Shown here in pieces: positions 6,131-47,531 of a stretch of DNA of 64,000 nucleotides. Each line of letters starts with the position of its first letter. The stretch's first letter is position 1. Origin of the DNA: Escherichia coli (GTDB lineage: Bacteria; Pseudomonadota; Gammaproteobacteria; Enterobacterales; Enterobacteriaceae). Location of the stretch: the NCBI RefSeq assembly GCF_030384885.1, contig NZ_CP128613.1. One strand, given 5' to 3'. The notes under the pieces were generated by a model, which searched no databases, had not been told where the DNA came from, and saw only the letters and a list, made by a program, of their open reading frames with translations. The translations under genes were made by a program, and so were the position numbers.

Positions 6131-6380
6131 CGTCATCCTCCAGCGGGATATCGCGATAGATAAATTTCACCATCGCCCAGCACAGTCCAATAAACAGCAG
6201 CGGCGTCAGGATGCAAGCCATCTCAAACCAGCGTGGAAAGCCGGTAAAACCGGAGGTAACGCCAGGTAAGTAAGCGGCTACTAACCATACCGCCAGATAC
6301 AAAAGGGTCAGCCCCAGCGCCCAGCGCGCCTCTTTATGGGCCTGAACAAAACGAGTGTCCACGGAAGGGGTCCTCCTCAT
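6120..6380 (-). CDS. yhdT: small membrane protein YhdT (DUF997)
   Basis: Small two-TM ORF overlapping the panF start; an alternative GTG start at 6362 would give 80 aa. Confidence 0.75.
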   Translation of the reverse strand: MRRTPSVDTRFVQAHKEARWALGLTLLYLAVWLVAAYLPGVTSGFTGFPRWFEMACILTPLLFIGLCWAMVKFIYRDIPLEDDDAA

Positions 6381-6454
6381 GGGGGGATACGAGAAACGGG
6401 CAATTCTACGGCAACTCTTCAGGCAGGGAAAATAATCTGACAGAAAATTGCCGT

Positions 6455-7411
6455 TCAGTGCTCCTGCAAAAAGTCTTCAATGTCAGCCAGTGAGGATACC
6501 CCTTCCATCGGACCTTGCCGCATTACCGCGAGCGCGCCGCTGGCATTTGCATATTGCAGCGCCTTGTGTGCCGGGATACCGGATAAGAAAAGAGTGACAA
6601 ACGTTGCGCCAAAGCAGTCGCCTGCACCCGTTGGATCGATTATTTCGATATCGTGGCCTGCAACATGCTTGGCGTGTAATGTTCCGTTTTTAAGCTTGTA
6701 ATAGCTGGCCCCACGCTGGGCGCGTTTTATCGCCACATGTTTTACGCCGCCGTGGAGAAGATCGCTAACAATCTGTTCTTCTGACAGATTTTTGTGACGC
6801 GCGAAGAAAGGGAGTTCGCTTTCGCTGGGGATAAAAATATCCGTATATTCAATCAAATAATCGAGAGCCTGCGCCATTTCAGGAATACTCAGCATCTCTT
6901 TGCGAATATTGGGATCGAAAGAAACGGTGCCGCCAGCCGATTTGATCGTCGTTATTGCTTTACGCATGACATCGATCATGCGAAATGAGAACAATGATGA
7001 GCCCACAATATGCAGATGGTTACACTGTTTTAGCAGATCCTTATCAATGTGCTCGGCAGTAAACAAACCGCAGGCGCTGTTAGGGATATTAAAGACGAAA
7101 TCCCGCTGCTGTGGATTTTGATAACTTACGAACGCCGTACCTGTCACGGCATTGTTCATCACGTGGATCCCATCGGTAATGACACCTTCATGACGAAGAC
7201 GTTCTACAATGAGTCGGCCAAAATCATCATTACCAACACATCCGAAGAAGATGGCCCGATGGGACAGTTTTGCCACTTGAGCTGCAAAAATTGCAGGCGC
7301 ACCGCTAGGAAATGGCCCGATAAACTCCCCCGGCTGAGTGAATTTTTGATGTGGGTTGCGGGACAAAAACTCGGCCAGCAATTCGCCCATAGCGCAGATA
7401 GTTATTGTCAC
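6455..7411 (-). CDS. pfkB-family carbohydrate kinase (island kinase 1)
   Basis: ORF 6455..7465; GTG start at 7409-7411 preferred because it has a GAGAGGGG Shine-Dalgarno and aligns with the paralog at 12944..13906; ribokinase/pfkB signature DPTGAGDCFG near the C-terminus. Confidence 0.8.
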   Translation of the reverse strand: MTITICAMGELLAEFLSRNPHQKFTQPGEFIGPFPSGAPAIFAAQVAKLSHRAIFFGCVGNDDFGRLIVERLRHEGVITDGIHVMNNAVTGTAFVSYQNPQQRDFVFNIPNSACGLFTAEHIDKDLLKQCNHLHIVGSSLFSFRMIDVMRKAITTIKSAGGTVSFDPNIRKEMLSIPEMAQALDYLIEYTDIFIPSESELPFFARHKNLSEEQIVSDLLHGGVKHVAIKRAQRGASYYKLKNGTLHAKHVAGHDIEIIDPTGAGDCFGATFVTLFLSGIPAHKALQYANASGALAVMRQGPMEGVSSLADIEDFLQEH

Positions 7412-7421
7412 AAAACCCCTC

Positions 7422-8252
7422 TCATTCCTGAAGCCTTTCGCGATTGGACCAGGTAAAGCACTCATTACTGGTATAAAGGATAACGAAATCAGCCGACTGC
7501 AATTGTTGCTGATATTGTTCGTTAATGCTGCGGCTGACGATCACATTTTCTGCCTGATGCAAATGTCCAATGGCTGCCGTTGATGGCGCAGGATCGGCGG
7601 CAACGATAACTGTCTTATTCTGGGCATTATCGAAACAGAGCTGCCAGGCAGCGGCAAGTCTGGGAACGTTGATATTTAAAGTACCATCAGCATCCAGATG
7701 GCTGATTTCCAGAATGCTGTGTGTAATGGTGAAATGCTGAAGTGCCTGTTCGAGCGGTTTTCCGGCCAGTGCGGTGTCGGGGCGCAGCATTTCACTGCCA
7801 GCCAGTATTATTTCGCCATCAATAAACTGATTTGCCAGCAGCGCATGTTCGGGATCGTTGGTGATCAGACGCAGTTTTTTCACTTCGCTGAGCAATGGAA
7901 TGATCTTACGGCAGATTGTCCCATGTCCAAGAAATAGCGTGTCACGATCCCGAATTAACCGTGCGCAATGTCGTGCTATTTCCATTTGTTGTGCCAGAGA
8001 CAATGGCGCGATCGGTTGTATCGCTTCTGGTTCAGAGGAGAGTGGTGTCGCAATAGCACCGCCAAATGATCGCTTTAAATATCCCTGTTGCTCCAGATAA
8101 CTGAGATCGCCGCGGATCGTCACGCCAGAGACACCAAGTTGCGCAGATAAGTCATCAACTTTGATTTCACCCTGGGCGGCAACAATTTCTGCAATTTTTA
8201 ATCTGCGTTTCAGTAGGTTAGACGATTTTCTCGGCACGTTAACACTCTTCAT
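7422..8252 (-). CDS. DeoR-family transcriptional regulator
   Basis: 276 aa; N-terminal DeoR-type HTH region (RRLKIAEIVAAQGEIKVDDLSAQLGVSGVTIRGDLSYLEQQGYLKRSFGGA) followed by a DeoR-C sugar-phosphate-binding domain. Confidence 0.85.
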   Translation of the reverse strand: MKSVNVPRKSSNLLKRRLKIAEIVAAQGEIKVDDLSAQLGVSGVTIRGDLSYLEQQGYLKRSFGGAIATPLSSEPEAIQPIAPLSLAQQMEIARHCARLIRDRDTLFLGHGTICRKIIPLLSEVKKLRLITNDPEHALLANQFIDGEIILAGSEMLRPDTALAGKPLEQALQHFTITHSILEISHLDADGTLNINVPRLAAAWQLCFDNAQNKTVIVAADPAPSTAAIGHLHQAENVIVSRSINEQYQQQLQSADFVILYTSNECFTWSNRERLQE

Positions 8253-8420
8253 TGGCCTTTAATGCGTAACACTATAGCCCCTTGTATTTTTCTTTGAAAG
8301 TTACCCTTCAATAATATCGACAATTCGAAAATAAAAGCATAGGGCAAAAATTGCAGCAAAAATAGCTTAATGCATTGAAAATAAATGAATATTTCCATAT
8401 CTGTCCAAAGGCATCATTGG

Positions 8421-9447
<1,027 letters not shown>

Positions 9448-9481
9448 GACGTTGTACCCTACAAAACAATGAGGATTGTTT

Positions 9482-10372
9482 ATGAAAAATATTAAATTAC
9501 TTGGTTCCGCTATGATGGTGAGCCTGGCATTGTTCTCGCAAAGTTCATTGGCAAAAGAGTATAAAATTGGAGCTTCATTATTAACACAGCAACACCCTTT
9601 TTATATCGACCTCGCAAATGCAATGAAAGAAGAGGCGAAAAAAGACAATGTCAATTTAAGTGTCTCTATTGCCAATCAGGATTTAAACAAACAGCTTTCT
9701 GATGTTGAGGATTTTATTACTAAAAAGGTAGATGCCATTATTATCTCTCCAGTCGATTCGAAAGGTGTCCAGGCAGCGATAATTAAAGCCGATAAGGCTG
9801 GTATTCCCGTTATCACCGTTGACGTTGCCGCGGAAGGCGTTCCGGTCGTATCGCATGTTGCGACCGATAATTACGCGGGAGGCGTTGAAGCTGGTAAGTT
9901 AATGGGCAAACTTTTGAATGGTAAAGGTACTGTAGCCATTATTTCTTATCCTGCACTACAATCGGTGGTTGCGCGCGTTGATGGTTTTAAGAAAGGGTTA
10001 AGCGAGACACCGGATATTAAAATTGTTGCTGAACAGCTAGGTATAACGCGGGCTGAAGCGTTAACGACTGCGCAAAACATTATGCAGGCCAACGCCAACC
10101 TGAATGGTCTGTTTGGCTTTGGTGATGATGCGGCGTTGGCAGCGGTTATCGCAGCGAAATCTGCGCATAACGACAACATCAAAATCATTGGTTTTGACGG
10201 CATGAAAGAAGCGCGTGATGCCGTTGACAGTGAAAAAACGTTTGCGGCCGTGATTCGGCAATATCCCTATCAAATGGGTGCTAAAGCCATTGATGCTGCT
10301 GTTGATCACCTCAATGGTAAACCGGTAGAAAAAATGATCCCGGTACAACCCGGCGTTTATACAGGTAAATAA
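9482..10372 (+). CDS. periplasmic sugar-binding protein of ABC transporter (PBP1, CUT2 family)
   Basis: ORF 9476..10372; ATG at 9482 has a GAGGA Shine-Dalgarno; signal peptide MKNIKLLGSAMMVSLALFSQSSLA followed by a ribose-binding-protein-like fold. Confidence 0.85.
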   Translation: MKNIKLLGSAMMVSLALFSQSSLAKEYKIGASLLTQQHPFYIDLANAMKEEAKKDNVNLSVSIANQDLNKQLSDVEDFITKKVDAIIISPVDSKGVQAAIIKADKAGIPVITVDVAAEGVPVVSHVATDNYAGGVEAGKLMGKLLNGKGTVAIISYPALQSVVARVDGFKKGLSETPDIKIVAEQLGITRAEALTTAQNIMQANANLNGLFGFGDDAALAAVIAAKSAHNDNIKIIGFDGMKEARDAVDSEKTFAAVIRQYPYQMGAKAIDAAVDHLNGKPVEKMIPVQPGVYTGK

Positions 10373-10387
10373 TAAACATCTTCATTT

Positions 10388-10418
10388 CACAACAAAACGT
10401 TATCGACGTTTTGTTGTG
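10388..10418 (+). other. inter-cistronic stem-loop between binding-protein and ATPase genes
   Basis: Perfect 12 bp inverted repeat cacaacaaaacg / cgttttgttgtg with a 7 nt loop, 15 bp downstream of the binding-protein stop. Confidence 0.45.
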
Positions 10419-10432
10419 ACACCGAGGTCATT

Positions 10433-11932
10433 ATGACGGATGTTATTCTTGATGTTTCGCATATTGCGAAGACATTTGGTCATGTTCAGGCATTAAAAGA
10501 TATTACCCTCTCTTTACGTAAAGGGCGGGTGCATACTTTATTAGGCGAGAATGGTGCCGGTAAATCGACATTAATGAAAATACTCGCCGGTGTTTATCCG
10601 CCAACCCAGGGAACGATAACACTACGTGGTGAAACCATCACCATTAATAATCCGCAGCATTCTCGCCAGTTAGGGATTGCGATTATTTTTCAGGAACTGA
10701 GCCTGAGTAATAATATGACCGTGGCGGAAAATATTTATGCCAATAATGAACCGCGACGTTTTGGCATTATTAACGATAAAAAAATGCTCGCAGATTGCCA
10801 GAATCTCCTCGCGGAACTGGGCATCCCACTGGATCCGCTGGAAATGGTCGGCAATATGTCGATGGCACATAGGCAACTGGTAGAAATTGCCAAAGCCTTA
10901 AGCTATGCAGCAGATGTCGTGATTATGGATGAACCGACATCTTCGCTAAGTGATAATGAAGCAGAGATTCTGTTTAACATTATTGAGAAATTAAAGCAGC
11001 GAGGTTGTGCGGTTATTTATATCTCTCATCGCATGGATGAAATTATGCGGATTTCAGATGATATTTCGGTGATCCGCGACGGTGAGTATATCGCTACGCA
11101 TGAAAAGAAAAACAGTGATATCCAGCATTTGATTGCCCAAATGGTTGGTCGGGAAATGAAAAATATTTGGCCAGCACGTCTTGGGGAAAAGCCGGATGAA
11201 AATGTTCCTGCAAAACTGGAAGTAAAAAACCTTTCCCATCCTTCGCTTTTTAAAGAGGTCAGTTTCGCTGTGCGTCCGGGGGAAGTCCTCGGATTTTTTG
11301 GCCTGGTGGGGGCCGGGCGTTCCGATGTGATGAAGGCGCTATTTGGCCTCGTTTCGTATCACGGGACTGTGTTGATTGATGGTAAGGAAGTCAGGATCGC
11401 TAATCCCAAACAGGCTATTGATCATGGCATTGCTTTTGTGACCGAAAACCGCAAGGAAGAAGGGTTAGTGCTGATGCACGACGTCAATATGAACACGCAC
11501 CATGTGGCGTTTCAATATAACGCTTCGCGGATGGGACTCATCAATCACCGACAAGAAGAGGCGAAGACGCTGCAATCTATTGCCAGAATGAACACTAAAG
11601 TGAGTTCAGTACATCAGGCAGTGGGAGCGCTGAGCGGCGGTAATCAACAGAAAATCGTGTTATCCAAGTGGCTGGAGAAAACTCCGCGTATTTTATTGCT
11701 CGATGAGCCAACGCGCGGAGTGGATGTCGGCGCAAAATTTGAAATCTATAACGTGATACGTCAACTGGCTGCGGCAGGGACAGCAATTATTCTGGTGTCC
11801 TCTGAACTGCCAGAGGTCATGGCACTTAGCGATCGTCTGGTGGTAATGCGTAATAAAACGATTGCCGATATTTATTCATGTGAAAATTTAACGCAGACAC
11901 AGGTAATGACCGCTGCAACAGGAGTACGTTAA
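10433..11932 (+). CDS. sugar ABC transporter ATP-binding protein (duplicated NBD, RbsA/AraG-like)
   Basis: 499 aa; two Walker A motifs (GENGAGKST, GLVGAGRS), ABC signature LSGGNQQK and Walker B LLLDEPT. Confidence 0.9.
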   Translation: MTDVILDVSHIAKTFGHVQALKDITLSLRKGRVHTLLGENGAGKSTLMKILAGVYPPTQGTITLRGETITINNPQHSRQLGIAIIFQELSLSNNMTVAENIYANNEPRRFGIINDKKMLADCQNLLAELGIPLDPLEMVGNMSMAHRQLVEIAKALSYAADVVIMDEPTSSLSDNEAEILFNIIEKLKQRGCAVIYISHRMDEIMRISDDISVIRDGEYIATHEKKNSDIQHLIAQMVGREMKNIWPARLGEKPDENVPAKLEVKNLSHPSLFKEVSFAVRPGEVLGFFGLVGAGRSDVMKALFGLVSYHGTVLIDGKEVRIANPKQAIDHGIAFVTENRKEEGLVLMHDVNMNTHHVAFQYNASRMGLINHRQEEAKTLQSIARMNTKVSSVHQAVGALSGGNQQKIVLSKWLEKTPRILLLDEPTRGVDVGAKFEIYNVIRQLAAAGTAIILVSSELPEVMALSDRLVVMRNKTIADIYSCENLTQTQVMTAATGVR

Positions 11933-12922
11933 ATGACAGAGAAAACTCTTGCCAGTCCGAAACCTTCGGAAATTCCCATTGCAAATAATTTTAAAAAAGT
12001 CTTCAGGCAATATGGCGGTATCCTCAGTGGAATGGTGGTGTTAATCATTCTGTTCAGTTTTATTAATGACAGTTTTTTTACTGCCAATAACATTACTAAT
12101 ATTATTCTTCAGGTTTCGATAATTGCAATTACCGCCTATGGAATGACTTATGTACTTTTGCTTGGCGATATTGATTTATCGGTCGGTTCAACCATTGCAT
12201 TGATTGGCACATTTGCTGCGCTTGGGGCTTCATGGGGAATTCCATTTATTTTATTGGTCCCATTATCCATTATTGCAGCCCTGGCTTTGGGGATGATAAA
12301 TGGTGGCTTGACGGCTATAGCGGGTATCCCTTCGTTTATTGTCACCGTTGCTACTATGGGGATCTTCCGTGGTATCGCTTATATAGTGACCGATGGTATG
12401 CCCATCATGATTAAAGATGATGCCTTTCTGGCGCTGGGGAATGGAGAATTTCTCTATATACCTATTCCTATCTGGATATTAATCATCTTATTGCTGATTA
12501 ACCACTTCATTCTTACTAAAACAACCTTTGGACGAAAAATTTATATCACTGGTGGTAATAAAGAAGCGGCAGTTTATTCAGGGATAAATGTCACCCGCTT
12601 GAAAATTAAAGTCTTTATGATTACAGCCGTGCTGGCAGGTATCAGCGGGATGATCCTCGCCTCACGCCTCTATTCCGGGCAACCGAATTCCGCGTTGAGC
12701 TACGAACTGGATGCTATTGCCGCGGCTGTACTGGGAGGCACCAGCCTGAACGGCGGCTATGGAACCGTGGTGGGGACGGTGATCGGCGCATTAACCATCG
12801 GCGTTATTAATAATGGCATGAACTTAATGAATGTTCCCTATTTTTACCAGATGGTGGTTAAAGGATTAGTCATTCTTGTAGCCGTTTATTTTGACGTAAG
12901 AAATAAAAGAAAACGCAGCTAA
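11933..12922 (+). CDS. sugar ABC transporter permease (RbsC-like)
   Basis: 329 aa polytopic membrane protein; ATG immediately after the ATPase stop codon. Confidence 0.85.
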   Translation: MTEKTLASPKPSEIPIANNFKKVFRQYGGILSGMVVLIILFSFINDSFFTANNITNIILQVSIIAITAYGMTYVLLLGDIDLSVGSTIALIGTFAALGASWGIPFILLVPLSIIAALALGMINGGLTAIAGIPSFIVTVATMGIFRGIAYIVTDGMPIMIKDDAFLALGNGEFLYIPIPIWILIILLLINHFILTKTTFGRKIYITGGNKEAAVYSGINVTRLKIKVFMITAVLAGISGMILASRLYSGQPNSALSYELDAIAAAVLGGTSLNGGYGTVVGTVIGALTIGVINNGMNLMNVPYFYQMVVKGLVILVAVYFDVRNKRKRS

Positions 12923-12943
12923 TCATTTCAAGGAATTAATCAT

Positions 12944-13906
12944 ATGAGTAAGGTCTTCACAATTGGAGAAATTCTGGTTGAAATTATGGCGAGTAAAATC
13001 GGCCAGCCATTTGATCAACCAGGTATCTGGAACGGCCCTTATCCCAGTGGTGCGCCCGCTATTTTTATCGACCAGGTGACACGTCTTGGCGTTCCGTGCG
13101 GCATCATTAGCTGTGTGGGGAATGATGGCTTTGGTGATATTAATATACATCGTCTGGCTGCTGACGGTGTGGATATCAGGGGGATTTCAGTCTTACCTCT
13201 GGAAGCTACCGGGAGTGCCTTTGTTACTTATCATAACTCTGGCGATCGCGATTTTATTTTTAATATCAAGAATGCCGCTTGCGGTAAATTATCGGCGCAG
13301 CATGTTGATGAAAATATTCTGAAGGACTGTACCCATTTTCATATTATGGGTTCATCCCTGTTTTCATTCCATATGGTAGACGCAGTAAAAAAAGCAGTAA
13401 CCATCGTTAAAGCAAATGGTGGCGTTATTTCTTTCGACCCTAATATTCGTAAAGAGATGCTCGATATTCCAGAAATGCGTGACGCCCTCCACTTTGTTCT
13501 TGAGTTAACAGATATCTATATGCCCAGCGAGGGAGAAGTGTTGCTCTTGTCGCCACACTCGACACCGGAGCGTGCAATCGCTGGTTTTCTTGAAGAAGGT
13601 GTTAAAGAGGTGATTGTGAAGCGCGGCAATCAAGGTGCCAGTTACTACTCCGCGAATGAGCAGTTTCATGTTGAGAGCTATCCGGTGGAAGAAGTTGACC
13701 CGACCGGTGCGGGAGACTGCTTTGGTGGCGCGTGGATTGCCTGCCGCCAGCTAGGGTTTGACGCCCATCGGGCATTACAATATGCCAACGCCTGCGGTGC
13801 ACTGGCGGTAACCCGACGTGGCCCAATGGAGGGAACGTCTCGCCTTGCGGAAATCGAAGCGTTCATCCAGCGCCATGACATGTCCATTCGGGAAGCAGCA
13901 CAATGA
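12944..13906 (+). CDS. pfkB-family carbohydrate kinase (island kinase 2)
   Basis: 320 aa; N-terminal GEILVE motif and C-terminal DPTGAGDCFG; clear paralog of the kinase at 6455..7411. Confidence 0.85.
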   Translation: MSKVFTIGEILVEIMASKIGQPFDQPGIWNGPYPSGAPAIFIDQVTRLGVPCGIISCVGNDGFGDINIHRLAADGVDIRGISVLPLEATGSAFVTYHNSGDRDFIFNIKNAACGKLSAQHVDENILKDCTHFHIMGSSLFSFHMVDAVKKAVTIVKANGGVISFDPNIRKEMLDIPEMRDALHFVLELTDIYMPSEGEVLLLSPHSTPERAIAGFLEEGVKEVIVKRGNQGASYYSANEQFHVESYPVEEVDPTGAGDCFGGAWIACRQLGFDAHRALQYANACGALAVTRRGPMEGTSRLAEIEAFIQRHDMSIREAAQ

Positions 13907-14949
13907 AAAACGAAATTTGGTCGTGGATTGGCGATCTCTCGCAGGTTGCCGGAATTAAACACTATGAGTTATGTAGTGGCAGATCAAAGGGGACAGAAGC
14001 GTTTGATGTCCGTACTGGTGCGGGATTGGCATTTACGGTGGTAAAAGATCGCGCGCTGGATATTGCATGGGCCAGCTACAAGGACACTGCGCTCTCTTTT
14101 ATCACCCCCAACGGCATTGTCGCCCCCGCTTTTTTTGAGTCTCAGGGCAACGGGTTTTTACGTAGCTTCTACGCGGGGTTACTGACTACCTGCGGACTTA
14201 GCTACATTGGCACGCCCTGTGAGGATAACGGAGAAACGCTGGGATTACACGGACGTTTGGCTGCGACACCAGCGGAAGAGGTGGGATATCGCACAGAACG
14301 GACCGACGACGGCATTGAATTTGTCATCAATGGCAAATTACGGGAAACGCGATTGTTCGGTGAAAATCTGACGTTGGAAAGGACCATTCGCTGCCGCTAT
14401 GGCGAAAATGTGCTGCGCATTGAAGACAAGGTGACTAATCATGGTTTCACCCGCCAGCCGCTGCAAATTCTTTATCACTTTAATTACGGCTGGCCTTTAT
14501 TATCGCCACAGGCAGAAATCTTGCTGTCGGCTAAAAGCGTAACGCCACGAACCCCGCATGCGGCGGAAGGGTTAACCAGTCATCTGGAGATTTGTACCCC
14601 ACAGCCCGGTTTTGACGAGCAGGTTTACTATCTCACGTTGAATAGCGACAGTCAGGGGATGAGTAAAGTTGCGCTGGTGAACGCCGAACTGGGGTGGGGA
14701 ATTTACGAGAAATTCGACACCATGCAGCTACCCAACTTTATCCAGTGGAAAAATTTAGGCGCGGGTGAATATGTTATGGGGCTGGAGGTCAGCAATAGTT
14801 TTCCTGACGGTCGTGATAAAGAACGAGCGCAGGGGCGTCTGCCCTTTATAGAGCCAGGGGAAACAAAGACATACTGCTTTGAGCTGGGAATTGTTGATGG
14901 CGATGCTGAAATTAGCGCGTTGAAAGCGGAAATTGCAAGCTACCGTTAG
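13903..14949 (+). CDS. DUF4432-like / mutarotase-like protein of unknown function
   Basis: 348 aa; start overlaps the kinase 2 stop (ATGA); family assignment from recall only and tentative. Confidence 0.65.
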   Translation: MKNEIWSWIGDLSQVAGIKHYELCSGRSKGTEAFDVRTGAGLAFTVVKDRALDIAWASYKDTALSFITPNGIVAPAFFESQGNGFLRSFYAGLLTTCGLSYIGTPCEDNGETLGLHGRLAATPAEEVGYRTERTDDGIEFVINGKLRETRLFGENLTLERTIRCRYGENVLRIEDKVTNHGFTRQPLQILYHFNYGWPLLSPQAEILLSAKSVTPRTPHAAEGLTSHLEICTPQPGFDEQVYYLTLNSDSQGMSKVALVNAELGWGIYEKFDTMQLPNFIQWKNLGAGEYVMGLEVSNSFPDGRDKERAQGRLPFIEPGETKTYCFELGIVDGDAEISALKAEIASYR

Positions 14950-14965
14950 CTAACGGCAATAAAAA

Positions 14966-14992
14966 CGCCGGGCAGCGTTAACAGGCCCGGCG
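14966..14992 (-). terminator. Rho-independent terminator downstream of accC
   Basis: Hairpin cgccgggc-N11-gcccggcg; on the minus strand it is followed by a T run (tttttattgcc), appropriate for ending accBC. Confidence 0.5.
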
Positions 14993-45784: not shown

Positions 45785-47152
45785 TTAATAAAATAGCGTG
45801 ATTGTGGCAATCATATTCACCACGAAACCGACTGCCATGGGGATCGCTGTCCGCTTCACCACTGCAAAAGGCGAAACACCTGCAATTCCTGATGTAACGA
45901 CCACCACCGCAGTAATTGGCGAAACCGCGCGCGCCAGCGTCGTGGCAAAATGCATCGGCATAATCATTACCACCGCTGGTACATGTAGTCCGGCTGCGAT
46001 ATTCGGAATAAGACTGGCAAATGACATAAACGGCGCATTGCCTGAGCCCATCACAATGGCACAAATGGCAATGACCAGTGCCATAATAATCATCACGCCA
46101 ATACCGCCCAGACCAGAATGCTCTGCGCCCCTGATAACCGCATCGACAGTGCCAATTGTCGTTAAGCCCTTCGCAAATATTTCACCCGCGACCACCAGCG
46201 TTACCACGTTGGCAAACTGCGTACCCATGCCGTCAAAAAACGCCTGCACATCGTCCATTGTTTCGCGCAAATTATGCTTGCGGAAAAACTCAACAAACAT
46301 CGTCACCGTCAAACTCAGTAACATCACCACCACCAGATGCAGTTCTGACTGCATCAGTCCAGCGTGGGCGAGGAACAGCGAGCCGAGCATCAGGATTAAC
46401 GGCATCACCGGTAAAATGGCGTAATAGAGCGGCGGGACATTATCGAGAGCTTTTTGCTCCGCCTGTTCGTGATTGATATTTTTATCTTTTTTGTCAAAAG
46501 CGCGTTGCACGAAAAAGTGAGAGATCGCTACCGAGATAATGACGCAAGAGGCGACCGGAAGCTGGTAGTGGAAGAAGTAAGTGGCGATTTTCATTCCTGC
46601 CACCTGAGCCGCAAAAATAGAGTTCGTTTCCAGAATCCCCCACTCAATGGACATCGTGGTTGCGATAACTGCCACCGCAGAGAGGCGACTTACTCCCAGA
46701 CTCACTAGTGTTGGAAATAAGGTGACCATCAGCAACATACCCAGACCGGAGGCGCTGGTAATAAACTGCGCCATGATTTGGCCGATAACGTAAGTCGCCG
46801 ACAGAATAAGATACGGCGAGCGAATGAGTTTTAACGGGCGGCTTAACAAGCTCACCATCGCCCGACTGGCTCCTATGCGCTCCATGTAGCGGGCATACCC
46901 GCCCACCGCCATAATCGACAGCCCCAATCCGGCAATGCGGTTGGACAGCATGCGCAGGATTTCATTATAAATATCGACGATCAAGTAGCCGCTGCTTTTG
47001 GCGGGATCGAGTACACCACCGAACCCTAACCAGACACCGCACATCATCAGGAAGATACCTGCGGCAGCCAGCACCACCTGAGGTTTGTAGTTTTTCAGGA
47101 TCAAATAGCCCATCGTCATTAATACGATGACAGATATAATTATGCCGAACAT
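45785..47152 (-). CDS. dcuD: DcuC-family anaerobic C4-dicarboxylate transporter homolog
   Basis: ORF 45785..47170; start [23 protein letters not shown] gives 455 aa; polytopic membrane protein between sspB and nanR. Confidence 0.85.
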
Positions 47153-47531
47153 TGTTGAACTCCGTGTCAAAAGAAAACGGTCAATCCCATAAACGGCAGA
47201 TTGAAAACAATGATGTTATATTTTTTGCAAGGCTATTTATGGTGCGGATGTCGTGTTTTTAATTGTGGATGAGGTGATTTTTCATTAAAAAATATGCGCT
47301 TATGATTATTTTGTAAGAACACATTCATAATATTCATAATACTTGTTAATAGTCTTATGAATAATTCAATCGTGATGTTTTTATCTGCGTTACATTAATT
47401 TTTCGCAATAGTTAATTATTACGTTAATTATGATAATAATGAGACACAAAGAGAAAAAACCGCCATTTCCCCCTACTTTCAATCCTGTGATAGGATGTCA
47501 CTGATGATGTTAATCACACTGACCTTACAGA

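Follow-up and report, generated by a model that had tools for sequence, protein, structure and literature searches.

The tag locus, predicted to serve D-tagatose catabolism, as one allele of the accC–yhdT site in an Escherichia coli stool isolate

Identification of the tag locus

We analyzed a window of 64,000 nucleotides from an Escherichia coli chromosome (contig NZ_CP128613.1; host, the human-stool isolate 2013C-4282) with a focus on the eight-gene module that separates yhdT from accC (positions 6381-14965). Judging from its sequence, this region is almost certainly the chromosomal E. coli tag locus, in which tagK-tagR are divergent from tagYABCDE, with D-tagatose catabolism as its function here, and it represents one allele of the accC/yhdT site. 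The system is already known. Ha et al. (2022, iScience, PMC9720028) described an 8.5-kb eight-gene region between accC and yhdT in E. coli Nissle 1917 (EcN) that K-12 lacks, and Park et al. (2025, Microb Cell Fact, PMC12226905) coined the names tagK, tagR, tagY, tagA, tagB, tagC, tagD and tagE. Earlier still, a comparative study had flagged the operon c4013-c4018 of the uropathogenic strain CFT073 as an uncharacterised sugar module (PMC2831201). A preliminary description of the window, made from the sequence alone, had proposed the module as an undescribed system; this claim has to be given up, since the two E. coli papers present a characterised, named pathway with a defined substrate.

The identification rests on a close match to the EcN locus (ECOLIN_RS18670-18705 / HW372_RS02435-02470), with which the module shares 97.0% nucleotide identity over 8.68 kb. 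Chromosomal site, order and orientation of the eight genes are the same, and the EcN promoters, operators and CRP site are also present in the window. The eight proteins have the same lengths as their EcN counterparts, are 96.6-99.6% identical in amino acid sequence and contain no internal stops. Differences are those of an allelic variant only: about 3% of the nucleotides, including one change in the operator tagO1 and one in the -35 element of the promoter Ptag. Relative to K-12 as well as to EcN, the flanks show about 96-98% identity. Because all eight reading frames and the regulatory elements are intact at this level of protein identity, we infer that the copy in the window is functional.

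We met no observation that contradicts the identification as the tag locus. What weighs against the functional reading is, first, that the functional evidence comes from EcN and from K-12, B and W strains, the allele here being 97% identical. Furthermore, tagD is the sole gene of the locus with a published single-gene deletion and the enzyme roles are genetic (PMC9720028), while the binding of the repressor TagR to tagO1 and tagO2 is a prediction in PMC12226905. Finally, the kinase TagD scored 414.2 bits with the tagatose kinase model NF049991 (TagKinase), just under the curated cut-off of 420; its function therefore rests on the EcN genetics and not on this score.

With pathway, substrate, regulation and distribution published, the module has no discovery value. 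It gives B2/F-type and some other E. coli, among them extraintestinal pathogenic and adherent-invasive lineages as well as the probiotic Nissle 1917, access to a sugar that is sold as a low-calorie sweetener, and it has already been turned into a tagatose-inducible expression system. The value that remains lies in the roles of TagK and TagE, in the nature of the inducer and in the conserved core of tagR, tagK and the aldolase gene.

Genes of the module

Gene calls combine the list of open reading frames with the RefSeq annotation of NZ_CP027579.1 (E. coli 2013C-4282), to which the window is 100% identical, and families were assigned by NCBIfam and Pfam scans of the module proteins. The yhdT–accC interval holds eight intact genes (window 6455-14949) whose content, strands, order and position agree with the preliminary description, and the family scans match the published role of each gene. 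Two genes lie on the minus strand: tagK (6455-7411; RefSeq 6455-7390), encoding a pfkB-family sugar kinase and co-transcribed with tagR, and tagR itself (7422-8252), whose product matches DeoR-family NCBIfam models, is 98.9% identical to EcN ECOLIN_RS18700 and represents the DeoR/GlpR-family repressor of the tag operon. The operon on the plus strand begins with tagY (8593-9447; 97.2% amino acid identity to EcN), encoding a class II, metal-dependent D-tagatose-1,6-bisphosphate aldolase. It is followed by the importer genes tagA (9482-10372; 98.3%) for a periplasmic, RbsB/AlsB-like CUT2 sugar-binding protein, tagB (10433-11932; 99.6%) for an ATP-binding cassette (ABC) ATPase with two nucleotide-binding domains that is XylG/AraG/RbsA-like over its full length, and tagC (11933-12922; 99.4%) for an AraH/RbsC-like ABC permease. 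The last two genes are tagD (12944-13906; 99.4% to EcN RS18675), encoding the pfkB-family D-tagatose kinase, and tagE (13903-14949), encoding a DUF4432 protein with a galactose-mutarotase fold.

Two of the names clash with older usage: the regulator-adjacent kinase gene tagK of E. coli is not the tagK of Klebsiella, Salmonella and Bacillus, which encodes a tagatose-1-phosphate kinase, and E. coli tagE (DUF4432) is not the tagE of Sinorhizobium meliloti (tagatose-6-phosphate epimerase). The gap between tagA and tagB (10372-10434) is taken up by an imperfect inverted repeat (29 nt with 76% complementarity and a 5-nt loop), which may form an intercistronic RNA hairpin that influences the relative expression of the binding protein. 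PADLOC reported only generic ABC-ATPase similarity for TagB, and a defence system was dismissed as a reading of the module.

The predicted route of tagatose degradation

In EcN, deletion of the six-gene operon, or of tagD alone, abolished growth on D-tagatose, and a plasmid carrying the six genes restored it; the same plasmid conferred tagatose growth on K-12 MG1655, BW25113, BL21(DE3) and W (PMC9720028). A K-12 pfkA deletion strain supplied with the six genes did not grow on tagatose, while the corresponding pfkB deletion strain did (PMC9720028). By orthology to the EcN locus, free D-tagatose would be imported by TagABC and phosphorylated by TagD to tagatose-6-phosphate; the housekeeping kinase PfkA, encoded outside the module, would convert this into tagatose-1,6-bisphosphate, which TagY would cleave into dihydroxyacetone phosphate and glyceraldehyde-3-phosphate. 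The preliminary description had foreseen an ABC-dependent route, independent of the phosphotransferase system (PTS), in which a tagatose-like ketohexose 1,6-bisphosphate is formed and then split by a class II aldolase, and precisely this has been shown for the orthologous EcN locus (PMC9720028).

The family models agree with this assignment. TagABC have the features of CUT2 importers (TC 3.A.1.2), namely an RbsB-type binding protein, two ABC domains on one polypeptide and an RbsC/AraH-type permease. They matched the RbsB, XylG/AraG/RbsA and AraH/RbsC models over their full lengths, each below the equivalog cut-off, so that they do not share the specificity of any named system. TagY scored 472.2 bits with TIGR01858, above the cut-off of 443.55, which classes it as a class II tagatose-bisphosphate aldolase, and it fell into the GatY subfamily PRK12737 (521 versus 383 bits). 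No gene for a GatZ/KbaZ partner was found in 6381-14965 by the reading-frame list, the family scan or the annotation. TagD is about 99% identical to PDB entries 3IQ0 and 3K9E, structural-genomics entries deposited as 'putative ribokinase II'.

Free D-tagatose seldom occurs in nature (PMC9720028), which raises the question of whether it is a gratuitous substrate and the physiological one a commoner gut sugar, either another ketohexose or a compound that yields tagatose. The published route leaves TagK and TagE without a role, and relatives of the DUF4432 protein occur in several different sugar clusters, as such a reading would have it. We nevertheless regard it as very unlikely: tagatose itself induces the operon more than 1000-fold and in a dose-dependent manner, it is fully consumed and supports both aerobic and anaerobic growth, the nearest curated families of TagD and TagY are tagatose kinase and tagatose-bisphosphate aldolase, and the related alpha-proteobacterial cassette of ABC importer and kinase is also a tagatose system.

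Control region and regulation

The 340-bp divergent control region, 96% identical to that of EcN, holds the promoters Preg and Ptag, the operators tagO1 and tagO2, and the CRP site. In PMC12226905, differential RNA sequencing mapped one transcription start per operon, and Ptag, Preg, the CRP site and the two operators were predicted. Preg (8271-8298, minus strand), which drives tagR-tagK, was recovered by a consensus scan with -35 TTCAAA, a 16-nt spacer and -10 TATAGT; both hexamers are exactly as published and invariant between the window and EcN. Ptag (8496-8522, plus strand) consists of -35 TTTTTA (8496-8501; TTTTTG in EcN), a 15-nt spacer and -10 TAGTTT (8517-8522, exact), placing its transcription start at around 8529. 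Just upstream of the Ptag -35 element lies the predicted CRP site TTCGACATGCATCACG (8479-8494, plus strand), again exactly as published. Taken alone, the degenerate CRP pattern turns up in the window at least as often as expected by chance; the support for the site is therefore its position and its identity with EcN. The predicted operator tagO1 (8524-8542, plus strand) has one mismatch to the published 19-mer, is the sole match in 64 kb and overlaps the transcription start of the tag operon, and tagO2 (8548-8566, minus strand) matches its published 19-mer exactly, which none of 100 shuffles did. A further operator-like sequence at 8420-8440 (CTTTGAAAATGAAAC / TTTTCAAAGTGAAAA) lies some 100 bp upstream of tagO1 and differs from the tagO1 core at 2-3 positions. 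Because EcN carries two further changes there, we discounted it; it is probably not a conserved third TagR operator.

When TagR is present in excess, a Ptag reporter is repressed and the cells fail to grow on tagatose (PMC12226905). On tagatose, the operon genes are induced from 40-fold to more than 1000-fold, and the regulator-kinase pair about 2-fold (PMC9720028). In the proposed mechanism, TagR would be made constitutively from Preg and would repress Ptag via tagO1 and tagO2; tagatose would lift this repression (more than 1000-fold for tagYAB), and CRP/glucose would override it.

A conserved core in related loci

To place the E. coli module among its relatives, we compared it with loci from Salmonella (L010, 5969-8948), Klebsiella pneumoniae (L011, 5995-8951), Gilliamella (L013, 5975-8966) and Yersinia (L012, 1191-8978). 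In Salmonella, K. pneumoniae and Gilliamella, a TagK-type kinase gene follows the DeoR gene and the pair faces a class II aldolase gene, the operon being made up of PTS genes and a FruK-like PfkB kinase of 304-306 amino acids, as is known for loci of the gatY-tagKTH type. Yersinia combines the DeoR and TagK-type genes with an operon of the ABC plus TagD type. In five of the six loci, a tagO1-like motif, TTTC-N5-GAAR, precedes the aldolase start codon by 56-68 bp; per locus, the observed count was reached in no more than 2.4% of shuffles. As far as sequence comparison tells, a core of regulator, TagK-type kinase, operator and aldolase has been conserved. Since this core is kept while PTS plus tagatose-1-phosphate kinase and ABC plus TagD alternate beside it, the cassette for uptake and the first kinase step appears to have been exchanged around it, and the GC (guanine plus cytosine) content of the individual genes is consistent with a mosaic. 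The two E. coli papers do not mention this shared core of PTS-type and ABC-type loci. The survey of Ha et al. demanded ABC homologues (PMC9720028) and for this reason would have missed the PTS-type loci.

The regulator-side kinase TagK

The RefSeq start of tagK (ATG 7390, 311 amino acids) cuts off the first beta-strand of the protein and is probably seven codons too short. Reading from GTG at 7411, which is preceded by a ribosome-binding site (GAGAGGGG) and lies 10 nt after the tagR stop, gives 318 amino acids with the N-terminus VTITICAMGELL, which aligns with all orthologues.

TagK is 51% identical to TagD along its whole length, including the N-terminal sugar-lid segment, and its pfkB catalytic motifs are intact. 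It matched the free-tagatose-kinase model NF049991 over its full length with 347.8 bits, below the cut-off of 420. With TIGR03168, the model of LacC/FruK/PfkB hexose-phosphate 1-kinases, TagK reached 50.6 bits and TagD 46.0 bits, both well short of the cut-off of 216.4. Labels on homologues and on PDB 3IQ0 would make TagK an aminoimidazole-riboside kinase or a ribokinase; we rejected this, as tagatose kinase is the best curated model for both kinases and the ribokinase models stay far below cut-off. Kinases that resemble TagK more closely than TagD does (56-79% identity) occur widely among Enterobacterales and Orbales.

Two pfkB kinases had been taken in the preliminary description to mean two kinase steps within the module. 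The published genetics do not support this: tagD alone is essential, the operon suffices in K-12 without tagK, and PfkA performs the second step in that background; TagK is unlikely to be the second-step kinase. One could still suppose that the module is self-sufficient in its natural carriers, with TagD forming tagatose-6-phosphate, TagK converting it into tagatose-1,6-bisphosphate, and PfkA being dispensable. The need for PfkA was shown only in K-12 with the six-gene plasmid, which lacks tagK; moreover, the catalytic motifs of TagK are kept, and TagK-type kinases adjoin Salmonella and Klebsiella gat/tag loci that also pass via tagatose-6-phosphate. Set against this are the preference of TagK for the free-tagatose kinase model over TIGR03168, its end-to-end similarity to TagD, sugar lid included, the mere 2-fold induction of tagRK compared with that of the catabolic operon, and the wild-type-like growth that the six genes give without tagK. 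A self-sufficient module thus appears most improbable.

The features of TagK are more in line with an active free-ketohexose kinase that is tied to regulation and does not carry the bulk flux. That a free-tagatose kinase is kept beside the regulator even where a PTS delivers tagatose-1-phosphate points to a possible role in regulation or salvage. Sugar phosphates are the typical ligands of DeoR-family repressors. As a conjecture that we consider possible though rather doubtful, TagK might be a sensory kinase that makes tagatose-6-phosphate as the true inducer of TagR, tagR-tagK being an ancient enterobacterial tagatose core and TagE a ring-form converter. TagK would then act on traces of free tagatose, and free tagatose itself would, contrary to the current model, not be the ligand of TagR. 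The published E. coli work assigned tagR-tagK 'a limited role'. Searches for published work on the biochemistry of TagK or TagE, on DUF4432 and on STM3251/STM3252 returned nothing relevant; Shakeri-Garakani et al. 2004, who possibly treat the regulator-adjacent kinase, lay outside these searches.

The DUF4432 protein TagE

TagE was assigned to Pfam family PF14486 (DUF4432, E = 5e-104) and not to Aldose_epim. An AlphaFold2 model built with 35 homologues reached a mean predicted local distance difference test (pLDDT) score of 90.9, and a Foldseek search matched it to 3TY1, an uncharacterised Klebsiella protein (template modelling score 0.90), and to galactose mutarotases (GalM; about 0.63, probability 1.0). 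H116, H192 and E295 are invariant in the 35 DUF4432 sequences, and their spacing resembles what we take to be the catalytic His/His/Glu set of GalM, as in the L. lactis enzyme.

Distant DUF4432 genes adjoin a PfkB kinase and a mannitol-type dehydrogenase in one free-sugar cluster, an FGGY kinase, a class II aldolase and an isomerase in another, and a CUT2 importer, an SDR dehydrogenase and a lactonase in yet another. This context suggests that TagE acts on the imported free sugar ahead of the first committed enzyme. In a 2-ketohexopyranose, the C6 oxygen is part of the ring, so that a kinase acting at C6 needs the furanose or the open-chain form; a converter of ring forms or anomers would therefore be a sensible role for TagE. 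Based on the structural model, TagE may be a sugar mutarotase that turns tagatopyranose into the furanose or open-chain form that TagD phosphorylates at C6. In the published E. coli work, the tagE product goes by the name 'aldose 1-epimerase', and no characterised DUF4432 member was found in the searchable literature. The ABC-type tag locus of Yersinia pseudotuberculosis (L012, 1191-8978) comprises tagK, tagR, tagY, tagA, tagB, tagC and tagD and no DUF4432 gene. As this locus manages without tagE, the protein is probably an accessory, helpful rather than essential.

Genomic site, distribution and origin

In K-12 MG1655, accC is followed by yhdT after a spacer of only 108 bp, in accordance with the expectation that the K-12 interval lacks these genes. 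The K-12 homology breaks off precisely at the yhdT start codon on one side and at the accC stop codon on the other. Hence the spacer was replaced rather than interrupted: the module is no simple insertion but a replacement of the entire 108-bp spacer by 8678 bp. The yhdT start is GTG at 6362 (ATG in K-12), not 6380 as given before, and yields a protein of 80 amino acids, the same length as in K-12 and EcN. Neither an integrase nor a transposase is annotated around the module, a tRNA scan of window positions 1-22000 found none, and no direct or inverted repeats flank the module, so the absence of integrase, transposase and tRNA stated in the preliminary description was borne out. Its notion of a clean metabolic insertion stands as far as intact flanks and missing signs of mobility are concerned, and fails in that the K-12 spacer was replaced. 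The marks of a mobile genomic island, namely an integrase or transposase, a tRNA or other attachment site and flanking repeats, are thus lacking, and the breakpoints are clean; the sole hint of a foreign origin is the low GC content.

Between the convergent tagE and accC genes lies a GC-rich hairpin (14964-14992) with a T-run on the accC strand. An accC terminator had been placed at 14966-14992; hairpin and T-run are indeed present, and the scan sets the terminator-like match at 14964-14979 (14979-14964 on the minus strand). The hairpin is a probable accC terminator and likely terminates the tag operon, too; it is unrelated to the terminator hairpin of the 108-bp K-12 spacer. At the other end, yhdT begins with GTG in module carriers, and the region upstream of it (6363-6454) differs wholly from K-12. 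The genes tagR, tagK, yhdT, panF and prmA are co-directional and the terminator scan gave no site between tagK and yhdT, so that constitutive transcription from Preg may read through into yhdT-panF.

The call for a survey of E. coli genomes was answered with complete genomes (n = 5426): the module is present in 1422 and a K-12-type empty site in 4004, with no third occupant. As these numbers add up to the total, the accC/yhdT site is strictly biallelic; the module occupies this single site in all carriers. The survey yielded 1424 matching places, two of which lie on plasmid records; for one record, the identity is no more than 80-90%. No other complete E. coli genome holds a copy of the module that is at least 99% identical (best, 98.9%). 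The host is unusually distant from both references at this locus, being about 97-98% identical to EcN and 96.0% identical to K-12 over panF-prmA. Taken together, the absence of close module copies and the distance to EcN and K-12 place the strain in a sparsely sampled lineage.

The module has a GC content of 46.2% compared with 51.7% in the rest of the window. Per gene, values are 48-49% for tagK and tagR, 47.5% for tagY, 42-45% for tagA-tagC, 48.7% for tagD and 50.4% for tagE; the flanking genes have 52-55% and the control region 32%. The low overall value, the internal mosaic of 42-50% and the patchy spread among E. coli could be explained by a genomic island that this strain acquired recently instead of inheriting an old allele with its chromosome, and Ha et al. 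2022 (PMC9720028) favor horizontal transfer. We consider a recent island unlikely, for integrase, tRNA and repeats are missing, only one site has ever been used, in a strict two-allele pattern, and no other genome holds a copy at least 99% identical. In addition, the divergence of the module from EcN (97.0% identity) is about that of the flanking core (97.1-97.8% over 50 kb; accC, 97.8%), as co-inheritance or an exchange of alleles by recombination in the flanks predicts. Because of this equal divergence and the single-site, two-allele pattern, the sequences fit better with an old residence accompanied by losses, or with the exchange of whole alleles by homologous recombination in the flanks, than with recent insertion of an island. 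A second presence/absence difference was seen elsewhere in the window, where a gene for a DcuC/DcuD-type anaerobic C4-dicarboxylate transporter (about 45820-47190; record 4130637-4132004) lies between sspB and nanR; in EcN (L004), nanR directly follows sspB and this gene is missing from the interval.

Comparison with known systems

Apart from the EcN locus, the K-12 galactitol pathway (gatYZABCD) is close to the tag route in its lower part, as it likewise leads from tagatose-6-phosphate via PfkA to tagatose-1,6-bisphosphate and a GatY-type class II aldolase. TagY and GatY share 63.7% identity (PMC9720028). The galactitol pathway differs in its substrate, in uptake by a PTS and in that GatY works with GatZ, whereas the tag module has no GatZ/KbaZ homologue.

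By analogy, the ribose system rbsDACBK resembles the tag operon in that it, too, would unite a CUT2 ABC importer, a pfkB kinase and a converter of small-sugar ring forms or anomers. The latter is RbsD, a D-ribose pyranase. Its fold is not that of DUF4432, and the activity of TagE is a predicted one.

Klebsiella oxytoca, K. pneumoniae and Salmonella have a PTS-type D-tagatose pathway, gatY-tagKTH-gatZABCD (PMC9720028, citing Shakeri-Garakani et al. 2004), which shares with the E. coli locus the end step of tagatose-1,6-bisphosphate and a class II aldolase. The PTS-type loci also have the divergent pair of DeoR regulator and TagK-type kinase, as well as a tagO1-like motif located at -56 to -63 relative to the start codon of the aldolase gene. 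In contrast to the E. coli route, the PTS yields tagatose-1-phosphate, which is then phosphorylated by a FruK-like PfkB kinase of 304 amino acids that is only 19-23% identical to TagD and TagK. ABC importer, TagD and DUF4432 are lacking from these loci, and GatZ/KbaZ-like genes adjoin those of Salmonella and Klebsiella.

The ABC-type pathway of Sinorhizobium meliloti and Agrobacterium tumefaciens likewise employs a CUT2 importer and a tagatose kinase that forms tagatose-6-phosphate, and the similarity of the E. coli and alpha-proteobacterial clusters was remarked upon in PMC9720028. With the tagatose-kinase model, TagD ranks above TagK (414 versus 348 bits). The routes part at tagatose-6-phosphate, which is epimerised to fructose-6-phosphate by a tagatose-6-phosphate 4-epimerase in the rhizobial pathway and passes through PfkA and the aldolase in E. 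coli; in E. coli, the unrelated DUF4432 gene of the same name stands where the rhizobial cluster has the epimerase gene ('tagE').

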